Positions 1 through 24,658 of a stretch of 64,000 nucleotides of DNA are shown in pieces (position 1 is the first letter of the stretch; each line of letters starts with the position of its first letter). The translations under genes and the position numbers were made by a program. This stretch comes from a virus. Its lineage: Duplodnaviria; Caudoviricetes. Below the pieces are notes generated by a model. That model had not been told where the DNA came from. It did no database searches and saw only the letters and a list, made by a program, of their open reading frames with translations. The stretch spans positions 192,001 to 256,000 of the IMG/VR virus record IMGVR_UViG_3300014208_000023. The stretch is one strand, 5' to 3'.

Positions 1-327
1 TAGGTCCACCATAACTTGTGTTCCAAGTATATTAGAATGAACAAATGGAATGGCTGATGCTATTGAATGATCAACAAATGATTCAGCGGCTCCATTAATA
101 ACATATTCAGGGCGTTCTATTCTAAAAACATTCTCCATAAATTGCTTATCAGCAATATCTCCCATATAAAAATTGGGATGTAAATCTCTATTAAGATTTT
201 TTAAATTATATGGTTGAACAATTTTATCTACTCCAACAATATGATATGGCCACTTCTCTATATATGCTTTACGAACAAAATTAGAGAAAATAAATCCCGC
301 CGTACCAGTCACTAGAATAGTCTTCAT
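1..327 (-). CDS. rmlB: dTDP-glucose 4,6-dehydratase, 5' part only (runs off the window; not in the ORF track)
   Basis: Translated by hand from the ATG at 327 (ATGA overlap with the stop of the upstream gene): MKTILVTGTAGFIFSNF (Rossmann GxxGxxG-like) ... INGAAESFVDHSI ... SNILGT, matching the RmlB AAESHVD and TNxxGT motifs. Confidence 0.85.
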   Translation of the reverse strand, partial: MKTILVTGTAGFIFSNFVRKAYIEKWPYHIVGVDKIVQPYNLKNLNRDLHPNFYMGDIADKQFMENVFRIERPEYVINGAAESFVDHSIASAIPFVHSNILGTQVMVDL

Positions 328-1514
328 TCAATAATCCTTAATTCTGGAAGTGGAATAATGAACTTACCTTTATATCCAGATTTTCTACATTTATCCATAA
401 TTGAATCCGCAAAATTCCAGGCAAGTACTAATAAAACATCTGGATTCTTTTCTTGAATGGCAGATGATGGCATTACCGGTATGTGCTTGCCAGGAGTAAA
501 TGTTCCTTGTTTTAAAGGAGCGTCATCTACAGCAAAATCAATTATAGACTCATCTACATCTAAAGCATACATTAAAGTAGTCGCCTTTGCTGGAGTTCCA
601 TAAATAGCAATTGACTTACCGGCGGCTTTATATTCTTTAAGAATTTTATTTAGATCCTTGCCTAATTTTTTGATATTTATTTTTAATTGTTCAATAAGCT
701 CTTTGGGATTAATTTCATCTGAAACAAATACATTTGTTATGTTTGTTTTATTTTTTACATATACCCTAATTGATCCTCCGTGATTATCAATGTGTTTAAC
801 ATTAACTATTTTTAGATCTAATTTTTCAAAAAATGATATGAGAGGATTAATAGTATGATATGATGAGTGTTCGTGATATACAGTATCAATTAAAGTGTTA
901 TTGCAAACATCTATAAAATATGAGACTTCAAATATAAATACTCCATTATATGCTAGTATTTTTTTAATACCTTTAACGAATCCAATCATATCTGGAACAT
1001 GAGCCCAAACATTATTAGCCGTTATTAATTCAAATTGTCCATATTGTTTTAATATAGTATCGGCATATTCTTCAGTAAAAAATTCCGCTATAGTTTCAAT
1101 GCCTTCTTTATTGGCCTGATCTGCAATATTACGAGCAGGATCTATTCCAAGAACCTTCATGCCTAATTTTTGAAATTCTTTAAGCAGTGTTCCGTCATTA
1201 GATGCAATATCTAATACTTGCATTCCAGGATCAAGCTTGCACTGATCAATTAAATCAATTGCATATTGTCTAAAATGCTCAACATTAACTTTAGACGTAC
1301 CAGATACAAATAAATAATGACGGAATAATCTTTCAGGATCAACCGTTTCATTTAATTGATAATGCCCACACTGCTCACAACAACATACTTGAAGTGGAAA
1401 TTTATCCTGTTCTTCTTTAGTTTTTAAGAATTCATTAGCTAATGGGGTATCTGGAAATTTTAATACGGGCTCACCTAATGGGTATAAACATAGGCGACAA
1501 TTTTCTTGTTTCAT
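324..1514 (-). CDS. NDP-hexose C-methyltransferase (sugar 3-C-methyltransferase family)
   Basis: N-terminal Zn motif CRLC...CEQCGHYQL, SAM-binding VLDIASNDGTLL, YHEHSSY, C-terminal YGTPAKATT...LAWNF; architecture of TylCIII/EryBIII-type enzymes. Confidence 0.85.
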   Translation of the reverse strand: MKQENCRLCLYPLGEPVLKFPDTPLANEFLKTKEEQDKFPLQVCCCEQCGHYQLNETVDPERLFRHYLFVSGTSKVNVEHFRQYAIDLIDQCKLDPGMQVLDIASNDGTLLKEFQKLGMKVLGIDPARNIADQANKEGIETIAEFFTEEYADTILKQYGQFELITANNVWAHVPDMIGFVKGIKKILAYNGVFIFEVSYFIDVCNNTLIDTVYHEHSSYHTINPLISFFEKLDLKIVNVKHIDNHGGSIRVYVKNKTNITNVFVSDEINPKELIEQLKINIKKLGKDLNKILKEYKAAGKSIAIYGTPAKATTLMYALDVDESIIDFAVDDAPLKQGTFTPGKHIPVMPSSAIQEKNPDVLLVLAWNFADSIMDKCRKSGYKGKFIIPLPELRIIE

Positions 1515-1939
1515 TAGTAATCCTCACGAATAACATCTGCCTCATGACTTGCATGATCTCTATTTCGTTTAGAAAATGATAATAATACTGTATCTTCAAG
1601 AAAAACAGTTTTGTGAATTACATTAGGCGGAGTAAATACCATTTGTCCAGCTTTAACTATGAGCGGCTTTGCATTAGGATTGGTAGACAGTCCAACATTT
1701 CTTTCATAGTATTCCATGCTACCAGACATCACATAAAGATAATGAAAATCAGTTTTATGCCAATGATTAGATCTTACGCTACCGGCTTTACTTGTAATTA
1801 TTGATGCACATTGCACTGGCGTATTTAATAGATTTTGAATTCCGCCCCTATCATCTAGAAAAGGAGGGTCGAGTGGAACTATGGGATCTTCTGGATATTC
1901 TTCTTCATTAACAGCATCTGTATAATCTTTATTCTTCAT
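1514..1939 (-). CDS. Cupin-fold NDP-sugar isomerase/epimerase (FdtA/WxcM/RmlC-like)
   Basis: DDRG motif, RSNHWH cupin motif and PPNVIH; lies between the sugar-pathway genes. Confidence 0.7.
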   Translation of the reverse strand: MKNKDYTDAVNEEEYPEDPIVPLDPPFLDDRGGIQNLLNTPVQCASIITSKAGSVRSNHWHKTDFHYLYVMSGSMEYYERNVGLSTNPNAKPLIVKAGQMVFTPPNVIHKTVFLEDTVLLSFSKRNRDHASHEADVIREDY

Positions 1940-3060
1940 TTTTTCTTATCCTTTATTATATCCTCTATTTTAATTGCAATTTTGGACCAGGTGTAATTAG
2001 AAGCAAATGCGGTACACTTTTCTATAATACTGTCCGCAAAAGCTTTATTTGTTAGTCCTTTAATGACAGCATTAGTAAAAGCTGGCAAATTATCTCTAAT
2101 AGGGCTCTTAATTATTACTGCTCCCGAATCATTATAAATAGAGCCTAAACAATCTATATCTGTCATAACCGGCACAGTATATCCTGCGTGATTTTCCATA
2201 GTAGATACTGAAAACCCCTCAGTAAAAGCAACGGTATCTGCCGAAAAGGCAAATACGGAAGCTTCGCTTATTTCTTTTGCCATCGTTTCTCTGCTAACAG
2301 ATCCTATTTGTTCTACGTCTAAATGTTTTAACTTTTTAACACTTTCTTTTATATACCTAAGTCTTTGTCCCATTTCCACTACATGCGGATGATGGCTTGA
2401 ATCATTTGGTTCTATGTTAAGAATATCTCCATAATCAAAATGATAAAATATTTTCAAGCTAGCTTCTGGAACTGCTTCTTTAATTTTAGACCATTGACTT
2501 AGTAACCAATGTAATCCTCTATCACAACTACTTGTCCAAATTACTCTTCCAGGCACTCTTTTATCTTGATACCAAGACGGATCGCATCCAAGCGGAACAA
2601 CTGACCATTTCTCTGGAGTTTTTACTGATTTTTTTATATATTCCATATGCATGTCACATGGACTTAAAAAGACATCAACAAAATCATCATAATCAGCTTG
2701 GCAATATGAAAAATCATTTAAAAATTGCCAACAAATACGTGTTCCAGTAGTATTAACCCCTCGAAATGCATCTGGTTCGTTTATAGATATGACTGCATCA
2801 AAACTATCATCAATAACGGTATGGCGATCTATAAAATTGTATAATTTTACACTCTCCCAAGTATCTGGTTTATTATTTGGTTCGGCATGAACTGTAAATA
2901 AAGAAACATCATGCCCAAGCTTAGCCAGCTCTTTACTAATCATTACTGTTGATAAATCGGTTCCTGTTAAGCCTCTTAAACAGGTCCAAATATTATCATA
3001 CCAAAAATCTAATGGACGCTTTCCAATAGAAAAAGAGCCTAAAAATACTGCAATTTTCAT
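1936..3060 (-). CDS. Glycosyltransferase, GT-B fold (GT4-like)
   Basis: LAKLGHDVSLF, WTSSCDRGL, FTEGFSVSTME (ExFxxxxxE); paralogous to the C-terminal domain of 5140..7875. Confidence 0.8.
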   Translation of the reverse strand: MKIAVFLGSFSIGKRPLDFWYDNIWTCLRGLTGTDLSTVMISKELAKLGHDVSLFTVHAEPNNKPDTWESVKLYNFIDRHTVIDDSFDAVISINEPDAFRGVNTTGTRICWQFLNDFSYCQADYDDFVDVFLSPCDMHMEYIKKSVKTPEKWSVVPLGCDPSWYQDKRVPGRVIWTSSCDRGLHWLLSQWSKIKEAVPEASLKIFYHFDYGDILNIEPNDSSHHPHVVEMGQRLRYIKESVKKLKHLDVEQIGSVSRETMAKEISEASVFAFSADTVAFTEGFSVSTMENHAGYTVPVMTDIDCLGSIYNDSGAVIIKSPIRDNLPAFTNAVIKGLTNKAFADSIIEKCTAFASNYTWSKIAIKIEDIIKDKKK

Positions 3061-4304
3061 TGTGTTTTCACTATAAAATTAACCAATTGTGTAAAATACT
3101 CCATACTTTTAGATATATCAATTGTTTCTTTTGCCTTAATATTAAGTAGTGGCATTGAATGAACAACAATGTCGCATTCAAGATCTGAGAATTTATCGCG
3201 ATGACATAAATTAACTCCGTGCTCAATCCTTTCTAATTCGCAAGAGTCTAATGAATAAATAGTAACTGAATGACCTTTATTTGCTAAAATCATAGCTTCA
3301 TCATGAGCTTCATCAAAAACAATATTTAAGGGTTTATTTATTTTTTTACCATGTGTTGCTTTAATGAAAATATTTCCTTGATTTTCAACGTCTCTTGTTC
3401 CAAGACATAAAGCAACATAACACTCTTCAATATGAAATCCCGCTTCACGAAAATCTGCTGCTACGCTCCATATAGATGGAGCAATTAGATGAAAACGCGG
3501 ATTAGGGTGTAACCATGATGTTCCATTTAATCGTTTATATAGCCATGGATGAGCCCATTCAATATAATTCCCTCGCATCCATGCTCCATATGGTGTGCAA
3601 AGCAAAAATTTTCCATTTTCATTCATTAAATTTTTTGCCGGAATTAGCATATCATTTACTCGATCCATGATATGTTCATATGTATCTGTGCTGGTAATAT
3701 AATCAAATTTTTGATTCAAATTAAGATTGCTTATGTCTTTAAAATATGAAACAAAAAATTTTGCTCCAGTATTAAATTCTTTTGCTTTTCTATTTGCCAA
3801 TGCAACAGAAGTTGTGGATAAATCTATTCCAACAGCTTGATATCCCATTAAAGCATATCTATTTGTAAAACCTCCATCCATCGACCCAAGATCAAGAATT
3901 GATGAGGGAGTTTTTGAGAGATTTTCAACGATTAGATTGAAGCGATTTGCTTCTTGTGATCCCTCTGATAAATTTCGTGGAAGTGGAGTTCCAGCCTCAC
4001 TCTCAGTATTCTCCGGACTGTTGTTTAGAATAGCCGTTTCATTATCATAAATCCATGCAATTGATTGTTTTGTCAAAAACAAAGCCTTTTTTGTTGCGGC
4101 AGAATCTCTAACTCTATATGGTGCATTTTCTAAAAAAATGATCGCGGATTGAACTTCATCATGAAGCATATATTGTTTCCAAATAGCAATAACTACAGAT
4201 TGTAATTGTTCTGTAGTAATATCTAGTGGAAAATCACTAAAATCATATTCGCTTGGAATTGACCAATCATTGGCTCTGTTCGATAATTTTACTTTTGGAA
4301 ACAT
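3057..4304 (-). CDS. Class I SAM-dependent methyltransferase with an N-terminal module shared with 5140..7875 and a remnant GT4 N-lobe
   Basis: ILDLGSMDGG, VGIDLS, FDYITSTDTYEHI, LLCTP; N- and C-terminal segments align by eye with parts of 5140..7875. Confidence 0.75.
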   Translation of the reverse strand: MFPKVKLSNRANDWSIPSEYDFSDFPLDITTEQLQSVVIAIWKQYMLHDEVQSAIIFLENAPYRVRDSAATKKALFLTKQSIAWIYDNETAILNNSPENTESEAGTPLPRNLSEGSQEANRFNLIVENLSKTPSSILDLGSMDGGFTNRYALMGYQAVGIDLSTTSVALANRKAKEFNTGAKFFVSYFKDISNLNLNQKFDYITSTDTYEHIMDRVNDMLIPAKNLMNENGKFLLCTPYGAWMRGNYIEWAHPWLYKRLNGTSWLHPNPRFHLIAPSIWSVAADFREAGFHIEECYVALCLGTRDVENQGNIFIKATHGKKINKPLNIVFDEAHDEAMILANKGHSVTIYSLDSCELERIEHGVNLCHRDKFSDLECDIVVHSMPLLNIKAKETIDISKSMEYFTQLVNFIVKTQ

Positions 4305-4327
4305 AAATGCGCCTTTCTCTAATTCTA

Positions 4328-5143
4328 TTATTTAATAGCTTCAACAACAAAGCTATGCGTCAATCCGAAGTCTACTACTTGTTTTGACATTATATCATCT
4401 TTGCTTTTACCAGTTTCATAATAAAACTCTACATCTTTAAACCCTGCGGCAGATAATACCGCAGTCATTGATTTTTTAGTGAAAAGAAACATATGTCCAT
4501 CATAATTAGTCCAAGTGCATCCTTTGCCACAAGCGCCATACATTATCATAGCTAATTGTGAGCCTGGATCTGCATTCCTATAAAATTCAGGCTGCTCGAT
4601 AGCAAATTTATCCATATCATCATTCAAATAAGCTTTAATGAGTAAATCAAGATCAGGAGTAGTCATCCTAATAACTCCTCCAGGTTTTAACATTCTATGG
4701 CAGTCTTTTAATAATTTTGGAACTTCATGAATTGGATTAAGATGCTCAATAACTTGTCCTATATAAATTGATTCTATGCTATTATCTGCATGATGAGAAA
4801 ATCCATTTCTAATATCATGCACTCTAAAATCTACCATTCCTTTGCTGCGAATGAAAGTAGATAATACTTGTTGGTGCTCAGGCATCTCATGTAAAACATA
4901 AAATAATGTTTTAGCTTCATCCTGCCAGTCTAGATATTTAAGGTAATTCGATATATCTTCACGATCATAATTAATCCAACCTTCAAATGGAAATACATTT
5001 GGTCCAGAACCTATATTAAGTCTTGGTAAATATGTTTTTTTATCTTCTACCGGGATATAACATTCTGATTCTACTGAAGCAATAAAACTTGGTGATGCTA
5101 TTGCCGTACTATTTAGTAATTTTTTAAAATCGTCGTCATTCAT
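4328..5143 (-). CDS. SAM-dependent methyltransferase (type 11-like, glycan-associated)
   Basis: RLNIGSG...GWINYD, YIGQVIEHL, RMLKPGGVIRMTTPDL. Confidence 0.8.
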   Translation of the reverse strand: MNDDDFKKLLNSTAIASPSFIASVESECYIPVEDKKTYLPRLNIGSGPNVFPFEGWINYDREDISNYLKYLDWQDEAKTLFYVLHEMPEHQQVLSTFIRSKGMVDFRVHDIRNGFSHHADNSIESIYIGQVIEHLNPIHEVPKLLKDCHRMLKPGGVIRMTTPDLDLLIKAYLNDDMDKFAIEQPEFYRNADPGSQLAMIMYGACGKGCTWTNYDGHMFLFTKKSMTAVLSAAGFKDVEFYYETGKSKDDIMSKQVVDFGLTHSFVVEAIK

Positions 5144-7875
5144 TGGGTCTTTCTTCTTTCAGGATTTGATTCCAATAATCTTGTATCTCCATTATAATAT
5201 CCATTACCATTTTCTTTATATGGAACAGTTGGTTGATAAGGAGTCATTGGGTGAACATTAACCTCATCAATTAATTGATTAAACATATTGCTCCAGTCTT
5301 GGGCAAGATCATCTAAACCAAATGTTTGTTTAGCATATTGCTGCAAATTAATTCTGTCTGATTCGCTATAATTATTAATCGATTTAATAACCGATTTAAC
5401 AAATTTATCTTTATATTCTATTGATGTCCAATCTCCATTAATTAAAATGCCTCGATTAGATACCGTTTCATTTAATGCAGCAATACTTGAAGTAACTACT
5501 CCTAATCCCGCAGCCTGCGCTTCCATCGCAGTGATGCAAGATGTTTCGGTAAACCATGTTGGATGAATCCAGCAACCGGCTGATAAAAATTCTTCGGCCA
5601 ACACTTCTTTACTCACCCTATCATGATATACCACGCCCAATGGCTCTAGCTCTTTAATTTGATTTTTGAGTCTTCCAATTAAATCAGATTGTAATTTATC
5701 ATGTTGCGCAGAAAATTCCCAGTTTTTAAATCCATAATAAAGATGTAGCTCTGCCTTCGGAACTTGTTTTTTAATTTGTGGCCATACTTCTAATAAAATT
5801 GGCCAGCTTCTATCTGGGCTAGAACTATTAACGCATTTGAATTGATTTCTTTTTATATTTTTCGTGAAAAGATTCAAATCAATTCCATTTCTGGTTACAA
5901 TGACATGATCCGGATGAATATTATGAATATTAACTAATACCTGTTTGTGCCACTCAGTTAGTGCAAGTACCCTATCAGCTTTTAACAATAATTCATTAGT
6001 TGCGGCAATAGCATAAACATCATGAACCCATAATAATTTAAGCTTGGCTTTAATGTTATATTTATCGTCTAACATATCTGCACGACGAGATACAACTAAT
6101 ACGTCACACTCTAAATCTTTAAATTTATTAGTTTGATAATAATGTACTCCATCATAAACTTTACTACCAAAAATTCCACAACTATTATAAACGCTAACGT
6201 TATGCCCTAAAGCCGCCAATCTTTTTGCTTGCTCTAATAGCATAGTTTCACTACCGCCAATACCCATTCTTTTAACGGTTTCAGGGGTCCAAGTTTCAAC
6301 GCCATCTCCCGCAAAAAATATTACATTTAAAGGTTTATCAGTTCTTACTAATGCAGAGGAGGTTGTTGTTATGCTATTTAATTTTTGTTTTTCTAAGTCT
6401 TTAGATATATTAGAAATTCTAATAATATCATCAGAATTTTGCATAGTAATTGGTAAGCTGGCAACTAATGCAGCGGCGGATGCAAATTCATCACGAAGTA
6501 TTAATTGTTTCCATAATAATACTATGGTTGAATTAACTTGATCATCTGATAAGTGTGCAGGAAGCTCTTCGAAATTACATTTGGCAGGAATTTCCCAATT
6601 TAATAAAAATTTATTTTCATTAATGGTCTGTTTATTTAAAACCGCTCCAATAAAATCAGACATTTTAGGAGTTAATTCTTCTAGTGCTCTTAATTGATAA
6701 ATAGCCGCTAATGCTTCTTGTTTATGAATCCAAATTTCATATATTTTTTTATTTATAATAAGTGCTTGATCATTTGGCTGACTCTTAAGACCTATATTAA
6801 CGCTTTCTAATGCTCCTTTAATATCTCCCAATTTACTTAATGCCATATTTAGATATCGATGAATATCATATTCTCTATCTAATGGATTAACAAATAATAA
6901 AGTTTTAGTAACGGGAAGGTTCAATCCAACACGAGAAAAATATACGCATCTTTCCCAATGACGCATTTCATTGGGTCCTCCTCGTTCTGCCAAGAAATAA
7001 AACATTTTAGCTAAAGCAAAATAACCTTCACCCCAAGTTTCTTTAATAGAAATTGTTTTGAATGCCCACTTAAGACCATCTTCATATTTGCCCTGGGCTT
7101 GAAAAATATCAACTAATTTAAGACATGCCATGGCTCGCTCATCATCCCAGCCAGAAATATCTACATACTTACTAAGATGTTGAATAGCTTCATCTACTAA
7201 TCCATTATTATAACATTCTAATCCAAGATAATACATCTGCCTTGCATCAGAATCTCCAACCTTAGCAAAATAATTTCTTAAAATACGTAAATTACGACCA
7301 GACTCCGGAGCCTTATTACTATATTGTCTTCTATGTTTATATACAACAGAATCATCAGTAACGAATGCACAATTAACTCCATCATTAGGAATTACAACTT
7401 CATGTACTGGATTAACCCAATGAAATTTGTTCTTATTAGAGAATAATCTCTCTCTATAATGCAAACAAGTACATTGCCCTAATTCATTATAGGAATATTC
7501 ATAAGGAAACATAAAAGCAATCGCATCAACATCTGGATTTATTGCATCTGTTAATTTTAATAAATTTTCTGCTCCAACAATAACATCATCAGCATCCATC
7601 CACATTACCCATGGTTGGGTTGCAAGTTCAAAAGATCTTTGTCTGGCTTGAGAAAAATCTTCAATCAAACCAGTTTCAGGATTATTACAAGCGGTATAAT
7701 TTTCAAAAACATCTGCTAAACGACGAGCCACATCGGCAGTGCCATCAGTACTGCCAGTATCAACTATAACAATTTCTTTTACATAATCTCGAATGGACTT
7801 AATACAATCTTCTAATAGGGGCTCATTTTTTACAATTATACATACGCTTACGTTTGCTTGGGACTTCATATTCAA
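5140..7875 (-). CDS. Bifunctional glycosyltransferase: GT2 + TPR repeats + GT4
   Basis: VSVCIIVKNE, VDTGSTDGT, DFSQARQRS, WMDADD, VHE (GT2-TPR family of protein O-glycosyltransferases); TPR-like helices; C-terminal GT-B with GIGGSE and FTETSCITAMEAQAAG. Confidence 0.85.
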   Translation of the reverse strand: MNMKSQANVSVCIIVKNEPLLEDCIKSIRDYVKEIVIVDTGSTDGTADVARRLADVFENYTACNNPETGLIEDFSQARQRSFELATQPWVMWMDADDVIVGAENLLKLTDAINPDVDAIAFMFPYEYSYNELGQCTCLHYRERLFSNKNKFHWVNPVHEVVIPNDGVNCAFVTDDSVVYKHRRQYSNKAPESGRNLRILRNYFAKVGDSDARQMYYLGLECYNNGLVDEAIQHLSKYVDISGWDDERAMACLKLVDIFQAQGKYEDGLKWAFKTISIKETWGEGYFALAKMFYFLAERGGPNEMRHWERCVYFSRVGLNLPVTKTLLFVNPLDREYDIHRYLNMALSKLGDIKGALESVNIGLKSQPNDQALIINKKIYEIWIHKQEALAAIYQLRALEELTPKMSDFIGAVLNKQTINENKFLLNWEIPAKCNFEELPAHLSDDQVNSTIVLLWKQLILRDEFASAAALVASLPITMQNSDDIIRISNISKDLEKQKLNSITTTSSALVRTDKPLNVIFFAGDGVETWTPETVKRMGIGGSETMLLEQAKRLAALGHNVSVYNSCGIFGSKVYDGVHYYQTNKFKDLECDVLVVSRRADMLDDKYNIKAKLKLLWVHDVYAIAATNELLLKADRVLALTEWHKQVLVNIHNIHPDHVIVTRNGIDLNLFTKNIKRNQFKCVNSSSPDRSWPILLEVWPQIKKQVPKAELHLYYGFKNWEFSAQHDKLQSDLIGRLKNQIKELEPLGVVYHDRVSKEVLAEEFLSAGCWIHPTWFTETSCITAMEAQAAGLGVVTSSIAALNETVSNRGILINGDWTSIEYKDKFVKSVIKSINNYSESDRINLQQYAKQTFGLDDLAQDWSNMFNQLIDEVNVHPMTPYQPTVPYKENGNGYYNGDTRLLESNPERRKTQ

Positions 7876-7899
7876 TATATATAACCGAGATTATTCGAA

Positions 7900-8619
7900 T
7901 TATGTATTAAATAATACGGCACTTAATGCTGTTACGTCAGCAGTAGTAAATGCCGAAGTACTTCTTCCCCAAAATGGTGATATCATGCCACCATTGAATG
8001 GGAAGTCAGTTCCACCGCTTCTAACTCCTAGGAATTGAGCCGTAGATATTTTCCAATCAGATCCAAGTGTGCCAGTGCCTGTTGAAGATTGCGCAACTGT
8101 ATTAATATATTGAGTAACAACTCCACTTGATCCATTTTTAACTACAATAAGACTAAACCATCCAGCACCAATTACAGTTGCATCAGATAATGCGCCAGCA
8201 AAATTAACTATTCCGCCAGCATCTATATAACAGTTATAGTCATCAACACCATAAAGCCACTCTGCATCGGCAGTTCCATCGCAACGAATTAAAGCTCCCC
8301 AAATAAAATGATCGGTTCCAACGTATGCCGGTAAAGTGGTTATTATATTTGATTGAATACAATCTTGATTTGGCAAAGTTTGCCCATCAAAATCAGGATA
8401 AGATTGTCCCAGTGCCGTTGTTGCGACGGCAGGAATATTCGCAGCCGTACCGCCTGGATTAAGCGCAACTCCATTTCCGGAACCAACTTGACATGTATAA
8501 GTTCCGGTAGAATCATAATTCAAATACCATCTATATAATCTTGAGCCTAAAACATCCAGAATTGTTGTTCTGGTACTTGATCCAGAAAATGATATTAATG
8601 AGGTAGATATTCCAATCAT
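7900..8619 (-). CDS. Concanavalin A/LamG-like beta-sandwich virion protein (probable start 8619)
   Basis: ATGA overlap with the collagen gene stop gives MIGISTSL; [11 protein letters not shown]...YINTVAQ...FLGVR...FNGGM pattern is typical of LamG-like domains. Confidence 0.55.
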
Positions 8620-11600
8620 GAATTTCCGCCTTCCATTCTTTGAAAAATTCCATACCAATTAATAGTTGTATTGCTTCCTCTAACGAAACAAATTCCAGTT
8701 GCACCTGTATATGTCATAGTTGCGTTCCAAAATGAATTATCTTGTTTAGAACCGTTGTCTACACATGTCGATCCTGATGGAATTGCCCACGCCGTAGCTC
8801 CATCATGACGAAGCGTAAAAGAACGTTTAAATACTGCTGCCTGAGCCGCACCAGAACTAACACCATTTATTACTCCATCGAGATTGGTAACTGCTGTTGT
8901 ATCTATTGTGTAAGCATACATTGGCTGCCAACCAGTAGCTGTGGTTGTAAATTCAACTTCATCCGTATAAGTTCTTCCTTTAATAGTAGATCTATTTGTC
9001 GTTCTTGATCCAAGAACATCAATATTTCCACTGCCACTTACTCCAAGCATAGAATAACCAGATAACTGTTTAACCGTAGCTCCAGTAGGTCCGGTAGCAA
9101 GATCGCCTCCAAGTTGAAGTGTTCCCGGCGGTCCGGCAGGTCCGGTAGGACCAATTGGTCCGCCAGCAGGACCAGTAGGTCCCGCAGGACCAATAGATCC
9201 GGTTGGACCTATACTTCCAGTAGGTCCCGGCGATCCTTGGGCTCCAGCTGGACCAATAACACCCTCCATCGAAACTGCTCTAAATGACGCTTTATCCAAT
9301 GAAACTATTCTAGAGTTAGCTATTTTTCTCCACTCAATAAATCCGGTGTGAGAGCCTGCTGCCAAGCTGACGCCAGCAATTGAATTTACTTGCACTGGTC
9401 CAGTATGGACCATAACTTGATTTTCACGTTTCGCAACTCCGTCGATAACCCATCTGGTTTCAACTTGAGCCGGTCCAAGAGTACCAGATGCAAGAAGCTG
9501 CATCGAGTAATCCCACATTGTATTAGCAGCCACGCCCAACGTAATATTAATGTAAGTGCTTGGAATAGCCGTGAATGTAGATCCGGTTGGTTGTCGGTGT
9601 CCCGTGGCAATTAAGAAAGATAATGGCATGACGTCCACACCGCCGATTGGACCAGTAGCTCCTTGTGGACCAATGGATCCCGTAGGTCCAACGGGACCTG
9701 TTGGTCCTGTAACACCACCGCCACCACCACCCGGAATAGCTACTTGAATAACTGTTCCGGTAGTTGTTGATGTTGCTACTGCTGATACGCCAGCTCCTAC
9801 AAAATTAAAAGCGGTGACATTGCCTTTAAGAACATCATCATCTAATACATTTATTCCGGAGAATCCTCCACCTGGACCTTGAGGACCAATACTTCCCGTT
9901 GGACCTGCCGGACCAGTAACTCCAGGCGAACCTTGAGTGCCAATAGATCCTGTAGGTCCAGGTGATCCTTGAATTCCTTGCGGACCGATACTGCCTGTAG
10001 GTCCTTGTATACCTTGTTGACCTTGCGGTCCAGTAGGTCCAGTTGATCCTATCGTTCCAGTTGGACCTTGAGGTCCAATGCTACCCGTTGCACCAGCAGA
10101 TCCTTGTAGTCCTTGAGGTCCAATGCTACCAGTAGCTCCAGCAGATCCTTGCGGACCTTGCAGTCCAGTAGATCCAATAGTTCCAGTTGGTCCCTGTATG
10201 CCTTGTGGACCAATACTGCCCGTAGGACCAATACTGCCTGTAGGTCCTTGAATACCCTGTTGACCTTGGGGTCCAGTTGGACCTGTAGATCCTATAGTTC
10301 CTGTTGGACCTTGAGGTCCAATACTGCCCGTTGCGCCAGCAGACCCTTGTTGACCTTGAGGACCTATAGGTCCAGTAGCACCAACGGTTCCAATTGATCC
10401 GGTTGGACCTTGAGGTCCAATGCTTCCAGTAGCTCCGGCAGATCCTTGTTGACCTTGCGGTCCAGTCGATCCAATAGTGCCTGTTGGACCTTGTGGTCCA
10501 ATAGAGCCAGTAGGACCTTGAATGCCTTGTGGACCAATGCTGCCTGTAGGTCCTGTAGAGCCAATCGTTCCTGTTGGACCTTGAGGTCCAATACTGCCTG
10601 TTGCGCCAGCAGATCCCTGTTGACCTTGTGGTCCAGTTGATCCAATTGTTCCAGTTGAACCACGAGGTCCAGTAGGTCCAGTAGACCCAATCGTTCCTGT
10701 TGGACCTTGAGGTCCAATACTGCCTGTAGGTCCAATAGATCCTTGTTGCCCCTGTGGTCCTGTAGGTCCAGTTGATCCTATAGTTCCGGTTGGACCTTGA
10801 GGTCCAATGCTACCTGTAGCGCCAGCAGATCCTTGTATACCTTGTTGACCCTGAGGACCTGTAGGTCCTGTAGAACCGATAGTGCCAGTTGGACCTTCTA
10901 CGCCTTGTGGTCCAACACTACCTGTAGATCCTGGAGATCCTTGAGGACCAGCTGGACCAGTTGCGCCAGTAGCATTTCCACCAATTGTAAATAAGCTAAA
11001 GTTTGCATCAACAACTGTTAAAACAGTTCCGCCAGATATAGATATTCCTCTAACTCTAATGTCTACAACGTCATTCGCACTTAGAAAATTCAAATCTGTA
11101 ATTGATATTGATGTATTTTGCCCGGTGCCTTGCGAGGCTGCTCGCGCTCGGGCATTTATGTGCTCAACACCATTAATAAAAATTGTCCACTCATAATCTT
11201 TATTCGCGCCGTCTGTATGAAATGTAATAGATGCCGCTAATTTATACCAACCAGCAATATTAATTGTAATATCACTAGTACTAGCGCTTGGAGTTGTTCC
11301 AAATGCATTTGCAACAGTATCAAGTGCTGTTATTTTATAAAAAGTATCAGTAGTTGTAAGGGTTTGTCCAGTAACATTATCGGTTACACTTAGCGTACCA
11401 TAATTTGCAGGATTACCAGCTGGTCCGGTAGCACCTACGCTACCAGTTGGTCCAATTTGTCCAGCTGGACCTATCTGCCCTGTTGGTCCAATAGTGCCGG
11501 TTGGACCAATAGGTCCAATGCTACCAGTAGCTCCAGCAGATCCTTGGGGACCTTGAGGACCAGTAGCTCCACCACCGGCACCGCCGATGCCAGTAGCATT

Positions 11601-11633
11601 TATTTGGTAATTTTTAACTCTTGTATTGGCCAT
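8616..11633 (-). CDS. Collagen-like fibre protein with interspersed globular beta domains (one BclA-CTD/C1q-like)
   Basis: Roughly 120 uninterrupted Gly-X-Y triplets (about 9872-10980; [18 protein letters not shown]) plus four shorter collagen blocks. A domain with [12 protein letters not shown]...[10 protein letters not shown] resembles C1q/BclA-CTD. A GGDLATG module resembles the GGDL modules in 49860..51341. Confidence 0.85.
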
Positions 11634-11637
11634 TGGG

Positions 11638-12222
11638 TTAAATTATTTCAAAGTAATCTATTGTTAAGACATCATCGGGATATGGCGGCGCAACAAATAC
11701 AATTGTATCATAACCAGTTCCAAGCCCTCCGCTTTCAGCAACAAAATAGTCTTCAGGAATATGTTGTCTTAACCCATTAACAAATAATACTTCTTTAAAT
11801 TGAGATGTATGTTTGAATTTTGTTAAAGTTGTAAATGTAATATTAACATTGTTTTGTGTTCCAATTAAAGAAGAATCTTGCACATCAAATCCTCCAGTTC
11901 CAATAGTTCCAGTTACTTCTAGCCCATTAATAATGCCTGCTGATTGCAAAAAAGATTTATGAGCGTCATTAAACTGTAGCAAGTCTATATCGCTTGATAA
12001 TACAGATATTTCGCCAACTCTAATTTTATGTTGAAGCTCTCCTTTTAGAAGCGATGATCTTATATCAGACTCAGACACTCCTGGAATTGCTAAAAGATCT
12101 CTAGATTGTCCAAATGGTATTGGATAATTGAAAATAAATATAGTTTTTTTAGGATTAGAGTTATTATTTACAACAAAACCGCCATTTATTTTTTGGAAAG
12201 GCGCAAATTCATTTAATGGCAT
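11638..12222 (-). CDS. Hypothetical virion structural protein
   Basis: C-terminal LFVNGLRQ...DYFV...TIVFVAPP...DVLTIDY beta-rich module of the kind seen in phage fibre proteins; co-oriented with the collagen gene. Confidence 0.45.
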
Positions 12223-12990
12223 TTACTCTTCCTTCTTCGATTCGTTCCCGATTTCCTTTACTTCTTCAGACTCAATACTGTCAGCAATAGTTATGTTTAT
12301 AGATCGTTTAACATTCTTATTTTCTTTATTGGCCTTTACATTGCCAAATAATTTTTCCATCAATGAATCCTCCTGGACAAATGATGGTTGTTTTATGATT
12401 GGCATTGGTTGGTCACTGGTCTTACTAATTTGATCTTTTAGACGATAATTTGCATACAAAGATTTATGCATTAATTTCTCATCTCTACTAAGGAGAACGT
12501 TTCTAATCTCTTCTTCCGGTAATCTTTCTATATCAGCTGAGGCTAATCTATATCGTAAATAAAGTAACTCATCAAGATAATCAAATTGTGGCTTGAAAAA
12601 ATCATAATCTTTCTGCTCAACGCGCAAAGTATTATCTACGGCATTACATAGAATTCTAGAATTACTATCTAGCCAATCTGGATCGCCTATAAATTGGTCT
12701 TTAATTAAATCTACGGCAGTTTTGACTTTGAATAGATTTTTAATCTTATTAGATATTTCTGGAGAAATGAATGGCTCGCTTCTTTGATAATTTTGAAGAT
12801 TGCGCCGCGGATTAACTGTCGTCTCGGAATTGATGCGTCTAGTGTCAAAGGCTATTTTAGTCATACCACTGGGCAATGCTTCAAAAGCCTCTCTGATTTT
12901 AGAAAGATTAGTGGATTTTTCAGATCTTTCTTCGAAAGAAGCGTGTAATTTCAACAAATCTTTATTTAAGCCAAGGAAAAATAAGCTCAT
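12223..12990 (-). CDS. Hypothetical protein
   Basis: 255-aa ORF that tiles with its neighbours; preceded by a RATA-N6-YATW motif at 12999-13012. Confidence 0.6.
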   Translation of the reverse strand: MSLFFLGLNKDLLKLHASFEERSEKSTNLSKIREAFEALPSGMTKIAFDTRRINSETTVNPRRNLQNYQRSEPFISPEISNKIKNLFKVKTAVDLIKDQFIGDPDWLDSNSRILCNAVDNTLRVEQKDYDFFKPQFDYLDELLYLRYRLASADIERLPEEEIRNVLLSRDEKLMHKSLYANYRLKDQISKTSDQPMPIIKQPSFVQEDSLMEKLFGNVKANKENKNVKRSINITIADSIESEEVKEIGNESKKEE

Positions 12991-13020
12991 TCTAGGAATA
13001 TGTCAAAGTATCGATAGTCT

Positions 13021-14304
13021 TCAGCTAGAGAATACTTTTAGATACATATCGGCAACTTTTTCCCACGAATTCTCTATTAGATGTTTGTTTTGAATATCGA
13101 CCTGATGTTTTTGTGCTTCTTTAGAAGAAAATAATACATCAAGCTCTTTGGCTATTTCTTCTGGAGTATTGGCCTTAATGCTGGGTAAATCCTGGAAATG
13201 CGGTATGCCGGATGTTATAATAGGCACTCCCTTGGCCATAGCAACTCTACAAGCCCCGCTAGCGCCAAATACAAGGTGTTTTGGGTCGGTTCCATAAGGA
13301 AATACGGCAACCTTATTTGTTCTCAAAAAAGAATCTATAACAATTTCAGATTGAAATCCCCTTATCAAACTAATGTTAGATTCAACATTAAGCGTTTTTG
13401 ATAGCTGAACCAGCTCTTCATAATAAATTTGATGTTCAATTCCGTTAAATGGTGATTCAGCAAGTAGGCCAGTAAAAAATACATCAGGATACTTGTCCTT
13501 AAGGATTGCCGTGGCCTTAATACAATCCTCAAATCTTTTATATCTAAAAGAAAATCCTTGCGTAACAAATGTATGGTCTGATTTATAGAAGTTCCATAAC
13601 TTTGGTAAGTTTTGATTTATAAAGCATCCATGTGGAATAACATATACTTTACCGGCAACTTCTTTATTGATCTTAAGAACTTCTTTGGCTCCTTCGCCAT
13701 GAACAACAATTTCTGGTATGCAAGCTTCAACGATAGTTTTATCTTCGTGATAAAATATGGAATGCATGGTGACTATGATTCTATATTTTGATAGCCTACT
13801 TATAAATGATAGCCAATATCTAGCGTTGGGAAATAAACCAAATTCGTGTTGAATTAAAATAACATCAGGCTCATATTTTTCTATCGCCTCTATTAACTCA
13901 TCTAATTGTTCTCCTCGACGCCAGCATTCTATAACTTGATCTTCTTCTGCAATTGTGTTGTCGATTATATTTATGTTCTGCGTAGGAGAGTTGTTATATT
14001 CTATGAATAATTTAAAATCAGCAACTTTCTTTGATATCTCCGGAATAAGTGCCTCAGCATATGTACTTATTCCACACTTCATTTTCCAATTATTAATGAA
14101 TGCAACTTTTAGTTGATCTGACGGCTTTATTGCTTTTCTTAATTCAACCTTATCATTTTTCAAATGATAGTTAAGCATTAATTCTTGAGAAGATATGCCA
14201 ATAAGCTCTTGTGGAAGCTCAATAACTGTCAAATCATCATTAACAAAAAAAGCATTCGAGATAATGCGAATGCTTCCATTTTTAACCCCAACAAAACGAG
14301 GCAT
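13021..14304 (-). CDS. Glycosyltransferase, GT4-like
   Basis: KCGISTY, IQHEFGLF, VTMHS, VIPHG, GASGACRVAMAKGVPII. Confidence 0.8.
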   Translation of the reverse strand: MPRFVGVKNGSIRIISNAFFVNDDLTVIELPQELIGISSQELMLNYHLKNDKVELRKAIKPSDQLKVAFINNWKMKCGISTYAEALIPEISKKVADFKLFIEYNNSPTQNINIIDNTIAEEDQVIECWRRGEQLDELIEAIEKYEPDVILIQHEFGLFPNARYWLSFISRLSKYRIIVTMHSIFYHEDKTIVEACIPEIVVHGEGAKEVLKINKEVAGKVYVIPHGCFINQNLPKLWNFYKSDHTFVTQGFSFRYKRFEDCIKATAILKDKYPDVFFTGLLAESPFNGIEHQIYYEELVQLSKTLNVESNISLIRGFQSEIVIDSFLRTNKVAVFPYGTDPKHLVFGASGACRVAMAKGVPIITSGIPHFQDLPSIKANTPEEIAKELDVLFSSKEAQKHQVDIQNKHLIENSWEKVADMYLKVFSS

Positions 14305-15288
14305 CTATTCCTTAGATATAATAGTTCTAACCTTATCTTTTAGGCTACTGAAAGCATCCAAATTTATTGCCATATCAGTAGTTTTGTCATGTAGGCTTTT
14401 AACAAATAATACATCATCAATTGCAGTTAATATTGCAGATTTAGATGTTCTATAAAAATCTACATTTTTAGTAAGTGTAGCATTAAAATACTTTAATTTG
14501 TCGTGATGATGCAGATTAATGCACGGAGTTTGTGTTATATCCGCCATAACCAATCCGTGATATCGTTGAGATATAATTAATTCGTAAGAAGAACATAGTT
14601 TTGATAAAGATACAAAATCATATTCCTCAAATGGCAATATATTTAATTTGCCATGTGTCATCTTGTTTGCTATCTCGGCTGCCGCAAAATCATCTTTGTG
14701 ATTAGAGTTTCTACACATTGGCAAAACGTCAATAGAGTGCTTATGATCAATAAGAAATTCGAAAGTTTGGGCACACTCTGATTTAAAATATTCCCACGCA
14801 GAGTGCTTCCACGCAGCATCATTCCATTTTGAAACAGTATGAGAGTTTGGCAAAAACAGTATGGATTTTGGTTTTGCTTTCTGCTTGTCGACTTCATCAC
14901 TTAACGCATATACTAAATCTGGACAGTAAATAGCATTAGCATTCAGTGCTTTGATTTTATCTATAGCGTGTATGGATCTTATGCAGACAAAACTGGCTTT
15001 TTGAATTAGAAACTTGTGCCACGGATGTATAGATGTCTCCGCACCTACTCCAAGATAAACAATGGGTTTAGATGGAAGCTTTTCCAATAACTCCTTTGGA
15101 ACATTTGGTTGGCCATCTAAAAACGATCCTCCACCGAGGAATAGGGCGTCGTGACTTTCTAATAACTCTGCCGTTATTTTTTCAGAGAACGTGAATTCAT
15201 ATTCTGGAAATAATTTTTTATATGCTTCAATAAATAAATTGTCTCCGATGTTCGATTTGTTAAAGAACCCATAGACAAGTATTTTCAT
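14305..15288 (-). CDS. Polysaccharide pyruvyl transferase family protein
   Basis: YGFFNKSNIGDNL, LFLGGGSF, VYLGVGA, CIRSIHA, CPDLVY, ISQRYHGLV. Confidence 0.85.
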   Translation of the reverse strand: MKILVYGFFNKSNIGDNLFIEAYKKLFPEYEFTFSEKITAELLESHDALFLGGGSFLDGQPNVPKELLEKLPSKPIVYLGVGAETSIHPWHKFLIQKASFVCIRSIHAIDKIKALNANAIYCPDLVYALSDEVDKQKAKPKSILFLPNSHTVSKWNDAAWKHSAWEYFKSECAQTFEFLIDHKHSIDVLPMCRNSNHKDDFAAAEIANKMTHGKLNILPFEEYDFVSLSKLCSSYELIISQRYHGLVMADITQTPCINLHHHDKLKYFNATLTKNVDFYRTSKSAILTAIDDVLFVKSLHDKTTDMAINLDAFSSLKDKVRTIISKE

Positions 15289-15291
15289 ACT

Positions 15292-15630
15292 TTAGTATAT
15301 AACGCTATATGAAATTTCTCGAACGTTTCCTACGTCGTAAGATATTATTAACTGATAGGCTCCACACTCTTCAATTAATTCCCAGTGTAATGTATCATGA
15401 TGTGGATTACACGGATGACAGGGATGCGAGTTAAATTGATCAGTAAAATGCACAGAAATAAATTTTGGCATATGTGACTGGCATAGATCGATACCAACTT
15501 TGCCGCATCCATTTACAAAAAAGTCTCCATCCATTGTGTGATTGCGAGCTTTATGTTTTTTAAGCATGTAGTATCCTATATAAGTGGCAGATAAAATCGA
15601 GCTTACGACGAGAAGCATGTACAATATCAT
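15292..15630 (-). CDS. Small hypothetical protein with a hydrophobic N-terminus
   Basis: 112 aa; N-terminal hydrophobic stretch, Cys/His-rich middle. Confidence 0.45.
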   Translation of the reverse strand: MILYMLLVVSSILSATYIGYYMLKKHKARNHTMDGDFFVNGCGKVGIDLCQSHMPKFISVHFTDQFNSHPCHPCNPHHDTLHWELIEECGAYQLIISYDVGNVREISYSVIY

Positions 15631-15663
15631 TGTAACCTTATATTCGTTTATGCTCTTATTTTA

Positions 15664-16371
15664 TTAAGCATTAACATAATTTGGATTAACATTGGTTTCA
15701 CCAGTGCATCCAATTATTTGATAACCAAGCGGACTTAAAGCGGAATTAATTACTTCCTTAACTTTATTTGGTCCAACTTTAATTCTATCAGAATTATATC
15801 TAATAGTAACATTCTTACCTTCTACATCAAGACGTAACGACCCTTTAACTCCCTGAACGCTACTATCAAGCGCTGCAACTATATCGGCTGGCAAAGCATC
15901 ATCGGCCTGATTAGCATCTTTTGGAGCTGGTTTTGGTGCTGGCCTGGGAGAAGGCTTGGGAGAAGGCTTTTGATTTTTCTTGTCCAAAGGATCTGGCGGA
16001 AGGTCATCACATAAAGGGTCTCCTTGAAGACATTGCGCCAATTTATGAAAATTAGAGAAGTTTTTACGAAGCCTTGCAACTTTCTCTTCTGATTTTATAG
16101 ATGCAGTTACAATCACTCTAATGGCAGGATTAATTTTTTGAACCACAGCCCTTATTGCAGTCTCAATTTCTCCTCTGGATTTGCCGGCAGTAGTTAAGTC
16201 TTTGGCGCTAACATCAATTTTGACATCGCTAGCCGTGACCATAACGGTACTATCAGTGCTATTTGGAAGCAACTGATTTAAAGCCGCATCAACTGCAGCT
16301 TTAACGGTAGTAATTGGATCTTGAGAGATTTTATAGAATTTTGACGCTATCTTAAGTAAATCATTGACCAT
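15664..16371 (-). CDS. Putative inner-head protein (true start probably MVNDLLKIASK at 16371)
   Basis: The track's 5' extension (to 16449) reads through a terminator and poly-T run. Contains KISQ and KLAQ sites and a Pro-rich linker. Confidence 0.6.
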   Translation of the reverse strand: MVNDLLKIASKFYKISQDPITTVKAAVDAALNQLLPNSTDSTVMVTASDVKIDVSAKDLTTAGKSRGEIETAIRAVVQKINPAIRVIVTASIKSEEKVARLRKNFSNFHKLAQCLQGDPLCDDLPPDPLDKKNQKPSPKPSPRPAPKPAPKDANQADDALPADIVAALDSSVQGVKGSLRLDVEGKNVTIRYNSDRIKVGPNKVKEVINSALSPLGYQIIGCTGETNVNPNYVNA

Positions 16372-16403
16372 ACGAAGATGCTTTAAAATGTATAGAAATA
16401 AAT

Positions 16404-16441
16404 AAAAAAAAAAAAAACGGAGAGCATTTTCATGCTCTCCG
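16404..16441 (-). terminator. Strong intrinsic terminator after the cement-like gene
   Basis: Perfect 10-bp stem CGGAGAGCAT/ATGCTCTCCG with a 4-nt loop, followed on the minus strand by 14 T. Confidence 0.9.
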
Positions 16442-16475
16442 CTTTTCAAGCTAGGAGATAAGGCCTAGCTAGCTA

Positions 16476-17168
16476 TCAGGTAGCTGCGCCTGAGAACCAG
16501 TACGTCGCCATCGTGAAACGATTGGCTGATACCGATGCAACTGACCCTGAAGGTGAGTTGAGTGCAGCGACAAGATTGACTGGCGTATTGACTAGTGAGC
16601 CATTGCTTGAGAACTCGACGAGGCGAGCAACCGCAGTCGCCCCACCGCCGGCCGCGCCCTTGGTTGAACCGACTGGCGTAAGCAATCCGAGGACTGAATA
16701 CGTTAGTGGAGCATTTGGGGCTAGGGTTGCGTTTGAAGGAACTAGTCCGTCAGTCGCGGTATCACAAGCATCGAGGGTCGTAGCATAGAACCCTTGCTGA
16801 CCGTAAATGGTAACTTTACCAGATCCAGCAGCCGTGTGTGGTCCGAGTACCGCTCCGTTAATAACTTGCTGTCCAGTCTGTCCGCCAACAACCTGGCCGA
16901 ATAGAGTTCCGTAACCAGTCGTTCCTTCATCAGCAAGGAATAGTGGTTTCGTACCGGCGGCCATGGCAGTCGTTAGAACGGCGCGTTGTTTGCTGGTCGT
17001 ACCAACATATCCGTCTTCAACGTCAGCAGCTTCGAGATCGATGCTGGTGCCGATTGCAGTTGCGGTGAAGGTAACTAATTCGCCACCCTTGAGGGTAGCG
17101 GTTGGCGCGTCGAGACCGTCGAAGTCGCCGTAGGGCATTAAGCCTGATTGTTTTAATACTAGAGCCAT
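16476..17168 (-). CDS. Capsid decoration/cement-like protein
   Basis: Gly/Ala/Thr-rich beta protein with higher-GC codons, its own promoter motif, SD and terminator (suggesting high expression). Aligns by eye with 23647..24348 (LADEG vs IADDV; GSGKVTIY vs GSQMVTIW). Confidence 0.55.
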   Translation of the reverse strand: MALVLKQSGLMPYGDFDGLDAPTATLKGGELVTFTATAIGTSIDLEAADVEDGYVGTTSKQRAVLTTAMAAGTKPLFLADEGTTGYGTLFGQVVGGQTGQQVINGAVLGPHTAAGSGKVTIYGQQGFYATTLDACDTATDGLVPSNATLAPNAPLTYSVLGLLTPVGSTKGAAGGGATAVARLVEFSSNGSLVNTPVNLVAALNSPSGSVASVSANRFTMATYWFSGAAT

Positions 17169-17222
17169 TTTATTTTCCTATTTTCCAAAAACTTTCACCT
17201 GTTGGTCTTACAAATCTAAATT

Positions 17223-17236
17223 AATATACATTTATT
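17223..17236 (-). promoter_or_regulatory. Candidate late promoter RATA-N6-YATW (one of 10 copies)
   Basis: AATA-aatgta-TATT upstream of the cement-like gene; the other copies are listed in findings. Confidence 0.55.
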
Positions 17237-17267
17237 GCCAGATTTCATAAAATAATTTGTATTTTAT

Positions 17268-18629: not shown

Positions 18630-18655
18630 GGTTTCCTATATTATATGCTTGTATA

Positions 18656-19717: not shown

Positions 19718-19719
19718 TA

Positions 19720-23614: not shown

Positions 23615-23646
23615 AGATATTCCTCTTGAAAATGCAAGATTATTGC

Positions 23647-24348: not shown

Positions 24349-24516
24349 TACGCGACCTTAGCTGTGGTTGATAGTGGTAAATGGGACCAACTTTTCCCAT
24401 TCACAATATTGTTTATGCATTTTCTACTCACGTTATACTCCTTCGATAATTCGACGTTGCTATATTTGCCACTAATCAGTCTTATCCACATAAATATAAA
24501 AAATTGACTCTTTCAT
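24348..24516 (-). pseudogene. Homing-endonuclease relic: 47-aa HTH mini-ORF (24348..24491) plus an out-of-frame GIY-YIG-like start (MKESIFYIYVDKTD)
   Basis: Hand translation MWIRLISGKYSNVELSKEYNVSRKCINNIVNGKSWSHL... matches the C-terminal HTH of homing endonucleases; its stop overlaps the next start (TAATG). Confidence 0.5.
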
Positions 24517-24589
24517 TAGCGTTATACCTACCTATATATCTACTAATATACTATTATAGCGACTTACCGACAAGAAAAAGAGCTTATAC

Positions 24590-24639
24590 TATAAAATGAA
24601 GGAACCTTCCCGTTTTAAGCAGGAAGGCTTCATTTTATA
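24590..24639. terminator. Intrinsic terminator (possibly bidirectional)
   Basis: TATAAAATGAAG...CTTCATTTTATA outer arms plus an inner CCTTCC/GGAAGG stem. Confidence 0.75.
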
Positions 24640-24658
24640 TTGATGCTAGTTTTGTTCT

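Follow-up and report, generated by a model that had tools for sequence, protein, structure and literature searches.

Pairing of a collagen-like gene with a predicted SgtA-like protein glycosylation cluster in a huge phage and its relatives

Which molecule is modified by a phage that keeps sugar-making and sugar-transferring enzymes around a collagen-like gene? The question is raised by positions 1 to 15,288 of a 64,000-nt stretch (the window) which covers bases 192001-256000 of the 428,320-bp virus record IMGVR_UViG_3300014208_000023 (Duplodnaviria; Caudoviricetes), a record with direct terminal repeats and an estimated completeness of 100%. A preliminary description of this region proposed that the phage builds a methylated, pyruvylated glycan on its own virion fibres, and it listed RmlB, a C-methyltransferase, a cupin, three genes with GT-B domains, two further methyltransferases and a pyruvyltransferase around the collagen gene; every one of these gene classes is present there, all on the minus strand. 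Our analysis favours, as the probable explanation, a cytoplasmic phage-encoded protein O-glycosylation system that would act on the phage's own collagen-like fibre, and we have distinctly greater confidence in a more limited claim, in which the collagen protein serves as glycan acceptor. All comparative tests agreed with the core of the earlier proposal; the acceptor, the sugar, the sequence of reactions and the position on the particle, at head or tail, are inferred, as is glycosylation itself.

The evidence that carries this explanation is the conserved pairing of the collagen gene with the gene of a GT2-TPR-GT4 fusion enzyme (GT, glycosyltransferase; TPR, tetratricopeptide repeat) encoded downstream of it. 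Co-occurrence of the two genes across huge phages, which the preliminary description had named as a check, was scanned and was found in relatives: the order u255-u194-collagen gene(s)-GT fusion-MT271-GT4a-cupin-C-methyltransferase-RmlB-reductase, with or without a final patatin gene, was seen in 13 of 15 close IMG/VR loci (gene names as in Table 1). A wider scan with a GT2-TPR profile gave 25 loci with 46-70% identity, on contigs of up to 472 kb and with GC contents of 0.30-0.68, and 23 of them have a same-strand collagen gene no more than 8 kb upstream, Thr and Gln dominating the Y position of the Gly-X-Y triplets throughout. At a 24th locus (L112; G006:C1:200000-211600), a frame of 3965 aa, almost wholly made of collagen repeats, lies ~11 kb upstream of the GT2-TPR enzyme. 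Viral proteins sharing the GT2 domain only, without TPR, never had collagen nearby. In the 428 kb of the phage studied here there is no second long collagen open reading frame (ORF), and because the pairing also recurs in relatives and in bacteria, it is more than chance.

For the bacterial comparison we used the 80 best relatives, almost all from Bacillota, which are ~360 aa long, consist of the GT2-TPR part only and are 25-37% identical to the phage enzyme. A collagen ORF was found within 10 kb in 48 of these 80 loci and within 500 bp in 42, Thr again being the leading Y residue. Farther than 3 kb from the enzyme, 787 kb of sequence contained only 7 collagen ORFs, a density at which about two adjacent cases are expected. 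In the tree, phage and Bacillota enzymes formed separate clades (99% support each), and thus the association holds in two lineages. The bacterial sequence nearest to the phage clade (34% identity) comes from a metagenome-assembled genome of Pyrinomonadaceae (Acidobacteriota; L018:1-1477), where it stands after a G-x-T collagen ORF at the contig end; this piece could be a prophage fragment or a hint of the host phylum.

The domains of the fusion enzyme point to a protein as its acceptor. When the single sequence was searched against solved structures, the N-terminal 400 aa matched GmaR (8.6e-16), SunS (7.5e-11) and a ThuS-like enzyme, and the top NCBIfam match of the enzyme was the SunS peptide S-glycosyltransferase model. 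A profile built from 11 homologues matched GmaR at 6.8e-26 (residues 8-203) and SunS at 1.2e-16; its positions ~200-400 matched consensus TPR proteins (5.5e-25 and 4e-16), where the single sequence gave weak TPR_1 and TPR_2 matches, and its positions 622-862 matched the GT4 enzyme MshA (8e-7), the GT4 part spanning ~540-860. By these GmaR/SunS, TPR and MshA profile matches, the enzyme had been correctly named a GT2-TPR fusion. The catalytic motifs are intact, with D94, D96 and D97 at the D-x-D place and E777 and E785 at the E-x7-E place invariant in the 11 homologues, and the motifs IVDTGSTD and D-A-D are common to the fusion enzyme and GmaR. On the basis of sequence, the first module groups with protein and peptide glycosyltransferases, and we propose that the fusion is an O-glycosyltransferase that places the first sugar on a protein and carries an extra domain for elongation. 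Among cultured or deposited phages, no close homologue of this enzyme was found (best 26% identity).

In many relatives a domain like the neighbouring methyltransferase MT415 sits inside the transferase, between the TPR and GT4 parts (e.g. L008:9995-13399, L010:9989-13237), which ties MT415 to the same pathway as the fusion enzyme. Residues 2-383 of MT415 align to ~434-842 of these GT2-TPR-MT-GT4 proteins (MT, methyltransferase; 1082-1153 aa in L008, L010, L109, L116 and L117), and because the 911-aa fusion retains short flank remnants of the MT domain (residues 426-481 and 491-611), MT415 appears to have split off from the transferase in this phage.

In the collagen-like protein, the putative acceptor, collagen runs occupy residues 22-75, 223-585, 640-663, 791-823 and 825-839, the longest of 121 triplets, with globular beta-rich domains between them. 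The commonest triplets are GPT (31), GPQ (25), GSI (20), GAT (12), GST (11) and GTI (10); the preliminary description had named all of these rightly except GPQ, the second commonest, which it omitted. The Y position is taken by Thr 56 times, by Gln 42 times and by Ile 37 times, with only 6 Pro, and the X position by Pro 71 times and by Ser 44 times, while charged residues in the triplets amount to one Glu and one Arg in total. Charged residues and Y-position Pro are the usual non-glycan stabilisers of bacterial collagens, and with so few of either these stabilisers are missing from the collagen protein. The genome does encode, far from the collagen gene, a 205-aa 2OG-Fe(II) oxygenase of the prolyl-4-hydroxylase type (PF13640, 3.8e-19; C1:17666-17968, minus strand), so the absence of hydroxyproline is not certain, though Pro is rare in Y. 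Collagen length and distal domains are variable among relatives, from 1005 to 3965 aa, and the longer figure, that of L112, is among the longest collagen-like ORFs seen. The globular domains are poorly conserved, domain 1 being shared only with L005 and domains 3 and 4 only with L010/L011, a pattern expected of domains at the distal end of a fibre.

Directly upstream of the collagen gene, u194 may supply the means of attachment. Its family has at least 498 cluster representatives, and its N-terminal ~100 residues, which matched no Pfam or PHROG family, head proteins of 100-1323 aa with beta-helix, ConA-lectin or collagen parts. Such a distribution fits interchangeable receptor-binding proteins mounted on a common anchor, and it makes the module a candidate universal fibre or spike anchor. 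The model of u194 has a mean confidence score (pLDDT) of 89.9, and the 13 best PDB matches of its C-terminal sandwich are without exception chains of phage tails, necks or fibres, including the N-termini of T7 gp17 and CBA120 TSP4 and the portal-tail chains of T5, LME-1 and P-SCSP1u, with 64-76 aligned residues and root-mean-square deviations of 2.0-3.6. The modelled fold is suggestive, though not conclusive, of a tail-fibre anchor.

The remaining genes of the cluster are those expected to make and modify a sugar donor. RmlB matched TIGR01181 at 1.6e-102, its best match by a wide margin, with 342.9 bits against an equivalog cut-off of 365.1, so that nucleotide specificity is not settled. The adjoining putative 3-C-methyltransferase matched MtfC (PDB 4rv9; 3.8e-70, residues 5-394) and TcaB9 (8.3e-54), both over the full length, and has the hallmarks of the family, namely a Zn-binding N-terminal domain, a class I methyltransferase core and a family-specific C-terminal domain. 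The cupin protein had been called an isomerase, which was a guess, since Cupin_2 alone is supported: only generic cupins and the cupin domain of Cap5F matched, with no assignment to RmlC, FdtA or another sugar enzyme, and the protein may be a putative sugar epimerase or ketoisomerase. GT4a is 23% identical over 326 aa to residues 538-842 of the 911-aa fusion, is a paralogue of its C-terminal domain and is conserved in relatives, and MT271 has neighbours 49-61% identical to it in L003-L007, L013 and L109. Beyond the left window edge come an HNH-endonuclease-like insert, a Gfo/Idh/MocA oxidoreductase, for which 'putative oxidoreductase' was the best description matched, and a patatin-like protein. 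The sole sugar-1-phosphate nucleotidyltransferase found, an RmlA-like gene (TIGR01208, 5.5e-45), lies 96 kb away; with the reductase beyond the window and the RmlA-like gene at this distance, the system is not self-contained, as had been claimed.

These parts can be arranged into a scheme. The donor pathway would begin from NDP-glucose (NDP, nucleoside diphosphate), the product of the RmlA-like gene, and RmlB, the 3-C-methyltransferase, the cupin and the Gfo/Idh/MocA reductase would convert it to a 3-C-methyl-branched 6-deoxyhexose donor. The TPR array of the fusion enzyme would hold the unfolded or folding collagen chain, and its GT-A domain would place the first sugar onto Y-position Thr, perhaps also X-position Ser, of Gly-X-Y, as SgtA does on BclA3. 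The glycan would be extended by the fused GT4 domain and the paralogous GT4a and methylated by MT415 and MT271, and the glycosylated trimer would be mounted on the virion with the fibre-anchor-like u194. The GT4b-pyruvyltransferase genes at the other end of the region may have another target.

Table 1. Features of the collagen and glycosylation region, in window coordinates
Feature	Position	Strand	Evidence or remark
RmlB (dTDP-glucose 4,6-dehydratase-like; dTDP, deoxythymidine diphosphate)	1..327 (first 109 aa; the 316-aa gene ends at genome position 191377, past the left edge)	-	PF16363 9.3e-60
NDP-hexose 3-C-methyltransferase, TylC3/TcaB9/MtfC type (predicted)	324..1514	-	Methyltransf_13 (PF08421), Methyltransf_23 (PF13489), Methyltransf_14 (PF08484, 1.6e-37)
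Small cupin protein	1514..1939	-	Cupin_2 2.2e-7; adjoins C-methyltransferase in relatives too
GT4a, stand-alone GT-B (GT4-like) glycosyltransferase	1936..3060	-	Weak Pfam; profile against MshA 1.3e-5, PimA 9e-3
MT415, class I SAM (S-adenosylmethionine) methyltransferase	3057..4304	-	Methyltransf_23 2.2e-11
MT271, second SAM methyltransferase	4328..5143	-	Conserved directly after fusion enzyme in relatives
GT2-TPR-GT4 fusion, 911 aa	5140..7875	-	Glycos_transf_2 (PF00535) 5.3e-17, Glyco_transf_4, Glycos_transf_1
u252, Ser/Thr/Gly-rich protein	7900..8658	-	Between collagen gene and fusion enzyme
Collagen-like protein, 1005 aa	8616..11633	-	Pfam Collagen 2.4e-61; 163 Gly-X-Y triplets
u194	11638..12222	-	Directly upstream of collagen gene; conserved order; widespread N-terminal module and beta-sandwich
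u255, conserved charged protein	12223..12990	-	Upstream of u194; 37-43% identical neighbours in L004, L008, L010, L013
GT4b, GT-B glycosyltransferase	13021..14304	-	Atlas features 0.98; structure TM 0.73-0.83 to GT4 clusters
Polysaccharide pyruvyltransferase	14305..15288	-	PF04230 7.6e-19, 69.1 bits (cut-off 25.3)
u112, small protein with N-terminal membrane helix	15292..15630	-	Hydrophobic window residues 1-23; homologue beside the pair in G004
Intrinsic-terminator-like hairpin, strong	16412..16447	-	16-bp stem and T run; just after head-module gene 16476..17168

Glycosylation of phage virions, spore collagen, flagellin and giant-virus fibrils is established, and the pairing of a phage SgtA-like enzyme with collagen fibres was found in no paper in our literature searches. 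Bacillus anthracis BclA is a GPT-rich collagen filament with O-glycosylated Thr, a rhamnose and anthrose oligosaccharide and neighbouring rml genes; its methylated 6-deoxy sugars derive from dTDP-glucose through RmlB, and a short N-terminal attachment segment precedes the collagen. The phage collagen is also GPT-led, with a long Gly-X-Y run, Thr dominant in Y and a short N-terminal segment first, but a 3-C-methyl branch is predicted in the phage, the C1q-like domain of BclA is not demonstrable in its protein, and the setting would be a virion instead of a spore nap. In Clostridioides difficile, SgtA (358 aa, GT-A and four TPR) is encoded upstream of bclA3 and in vitro transfers beta-O-GlcNAc onto Thr, and also Ser, of peptides with GPT, GAT and GLI triplets (PMC7157674). 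The phage enzyme resembles it in having a GT-A domain followed by TPR, in being soluble and in being the same-strand neighbour of a GPT/GAT-rich collagen gene, a likeness of architecture and context; it differs in its extra C-terminal GT4 domain (with a methyltransferase too in relatives), its own clade and the branched-deoxysugar pathway, and its product would be on a virus, not a spore. Listeria monocytogenes GmaR, a flagellin O-GlcNAc transferase (PDB 22ao), is the best solved match of the N-terminal domain and likewise has TPR downstream. Unlike what we propose for the phage enzyme, its acceptor is flagellin; GmaR is also an anti-repressor, and it has no GT4 fusion.

To our knowledge, glycosylation of phage-particle proteins has been shown experimentally only in mycobacteriophages, where it alters antibody recognition. 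Virion glycosylation is described for Che8, Corndog and Myrna (Freeman et al. 2023, PMC10527164, cited in PMC12619734), and there too the phage encodes, next to its structural genes, glycosyltransferases that act in the cytoplasm on proteins of its own particle. These modifications are on the C-terminal tails of capsid and tail-tube subunits and are made by other enzyme families, and no collagen, TPR or dedicated branched-sugar pathway is known to take part. Giant viruses (Mimivirus and others) also encode sugar-nucleotide pathways and transferases for surface fibrils, together with collagen-like genes, but they are eukaryotic viruses with unrelated enzymes, and their collagen is modified through hydroxylysine (PMC9614988).

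Several observations weigh against glycosylation of the collagen fibre. Collagen is missing next to about 40% of the bacterial homologues, and among ten of these neither flagellin nor a recurrent partner was found, the neighbours being miscellaneous housekeeping or sugar genes. The likeness of the stand-alone bacterial relatives of the phage module to SgtA is one of length (~360 against 358 aa), architecture and context. Three more distant high-GC phages carry the fusion enzyme and yielded no collagen gene (L120, 80 kb and 89% complete, and the fragments L123 and L124), so the enzyme family is not strictly tied to collagen. The AlphaFold model of collagen-protein residues 655-1005, from a two-sequence alignment, is all-beta with a pLDDT of 35 and no assignable fold, and the Z scores of the u194 sandwich matches (6.3-8.0) are in the range, up to 8, where Ig-like sandwiches can match by chance. 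Moreover, the phage is uncultured and metagenome-derived.

The collagen-free phages bear on the alternative that the enzymes modify virion proteins other than or besides collagen, such as the major capsid or tail proteins, and that collagen is merely a conserved neighbour. The capsid gene is just 7 kb off, the capsid gene of a 42-kb spring podovirus without collagen is directly followed by that of a 26%-identical enzyme, and mycobacteriophages are cited as glycosylating capsid and tail-tube subunits (Freeman 2023, cited in PMC12619734). We nevertheless judge this explanation unlikely: collagen is the gene that stays beside the enzyme across GC 0.30-0.68, and of 80 loci in bacteria, where there is no capsid to modify, 42 have a G-x-T collagen gene no more than 500 bp from an enzyme of this family.

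A slightly less likely alternative is that the collagen protein is glycosylated and is not a virion component; it might be set free when the cell lyses, or be exposed on the surface of the infected cell, and serve for instance as matrix, adhesin or decoy. Its lack of a detectable signal peptide or membrane segment and the position of its gene between capsid and portal genes speak for assembly into the particle, as do the conserved u194 gene before it, with a fibre-anchor-like fold and an N-terminal module that heads beta-helix, lectin and collagen proteins, and the variation of length and distal domains among relatives, which is that of receptor-binding fibres. What this alternative has in its favour is that the globular domains match no known fibre domain (no Pfam family, C1q included); PHROG 'tail fibre' matches of the collagen protein were discarded as virion evidence, the alignments being confined to the repeats.

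It is improbable that the cluster alters a host surface polysaccharide (lipopolysaccharide, capsule or cell-wall polymer), for example against superinfection. Polysaccharide loci do typically contain deoxysugar pathways, GT4 enzymes, methyltransferases and CsaB-like pyruvyltransferases, but in the complete genome we found no member of the Bac_transf, WecA/MraY-type, Wzx or Wzy families, all of which were found in control genomes, so that no initiating phosphoglycosyltransferase, flippase, polymerase or ligase is encoded. No membrane-like segment was detected in any core-cluster enzyme or in the collagen protein; the core-cluster enzymes are soluble, and the lead enzyme falls in the protein/peptide glycosyltransferase group. 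That the transferases put sugars on phage DNA bases against restriction, as phage glycosyltransferases often do (Pyle 2024, cited in PMC12619734), is hardly credible, because GT2 and TPR architecture and the bacterial neighbourhoods indicate protein acceptors and no base-hydroxymethylation gene was present in or beside the cluster, the part of the genome searched for one.

The GT4b-pyruvyltransferase module, which includes a small membrane protein and moves independently, may nonetheless act on host polysaccharide. GT4b, the pyruvyltransferase and u112 form a three-gene unit (13021-15630), and the pyruvyltransferase is always beside GT4b in the relatives that have it. In G002 and G004 the unit lies ~155 kb from the collagen cluster in different, non-structural surroundings (L146:10533-13067; L147:9722-11944), and three other relative records searched, two of them complete genomes, gave no match. 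By sequence comparison it is a separate mobile module whose link to collagen is not conserved, and a pyruvylated glycan, as the preliminary description had it, is not supported by this conservation. The pyruvyltransferase scored 55.9 bits against the CsaB model TIGR03609, far under the cut-off of 213.1, which makes it a PF04230-family protein and not CsaB itself. The module is the best candidate in the region for a different target, which may be the envelope.

If the collagen fibre is indeed the acceptor, a broader picture can be offered, more tentatively and with somewhat less than even confidence. A clade of huge phages (GC 0.30-0.68, up to ~470 kb) may carry an exosporium-like nap of 1000-4000-residue collagen fibres, Thr-O-glycosylated by an SgtA-like GT2-TPR-[methyltransferase]-GT4 enzyme, whose glycan, with a methylated 3-C-methyl-branched 6-deoxyhexose, would stabilise a hydroxyproline-poor, charge-free helix and form an adhesive or shielding outer surface. 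Were huge environmental phages routinely to sugar-coat collagen fibres, phage surfaces would be chemically richer than assumed, with a bearing on host recognition, particle stability, grazing or immune recognition and the reading of virion proteomics. Because a single compact, soluble chain unites initiation with extension and, in relatives, with methylation, the fusion enzyme is a candidate tool for the O-glycosylation of collagen-like peptides, and together with the collagen protein it makes a directly testable enzyme-substrate couple for which phage culture is unnecessary.

The block is within the morphogenesis region of the phage, because the major capsid gene (phrog_2522, 1.6e-78) lies 7 kb left of the window, and the prohead protease-scaffold gene (26434..29799), the portal gene (35626..37500) and the terminase gene (37524..39434) lie to its right. 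Every gene across 1..49816 is on the minus strand, and over 1..15630 consecutive genes abut or share a few bases. The strong hairpin (Table 1) is likely, from its sequence, to be the upstream boundary of the transcription unit with the glycosylation and collagen genes, and no second terminator of comparable strength was found on the minus strand inside 1..15288. A sigma-70 promoter scan returned 72 sites, with 70.6 expected from shuffles, i.e. no enrichment. The listed ORF 15664..16449 begins within the hairpin (16412-16449), and thus its real start is further downstream or it is not a gene.

Two further genes adjoin the collagen gene. The gaps upstream of the fusion enzyme are 25 nt to u252 and ~740 nt to the collagen gene, and the true start of u252 is probably the ATG at 8619, which would abut the collagen stop codon. 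No family match was found for u252, nor a homologue at related loci, where the slot varies; in one of these (L012:3855-9964) it holds six tandem paralogues of ~330 aa each (Ser/Thr ~21%), unrelated to u252. For u255, neither a family nor a fold was suggested by Pfam, NCBIfam, PHROGs or Atlas.

The HNH-endonuclease-like gene (phrog_559, 4.5e-12; C1:190745-191365; L001:15745-16365, minus strand) is inserted between RmlB and the Gfo/Idh/MocA reductase, which in most relatives are directly adjacent. The patatin-like phospholipase gene (C1:188973-189836; L001:13973-14836, minus strand) closes the sugar genes on their downstream side and is conserved there in several relatives (L008, L010, L013). 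The major capsid gene and a PhyH-family dioxygenase gene just after it are on the plus strand (C1:183893-185805; L001:8893-10805), opposite to all surrounding genes.

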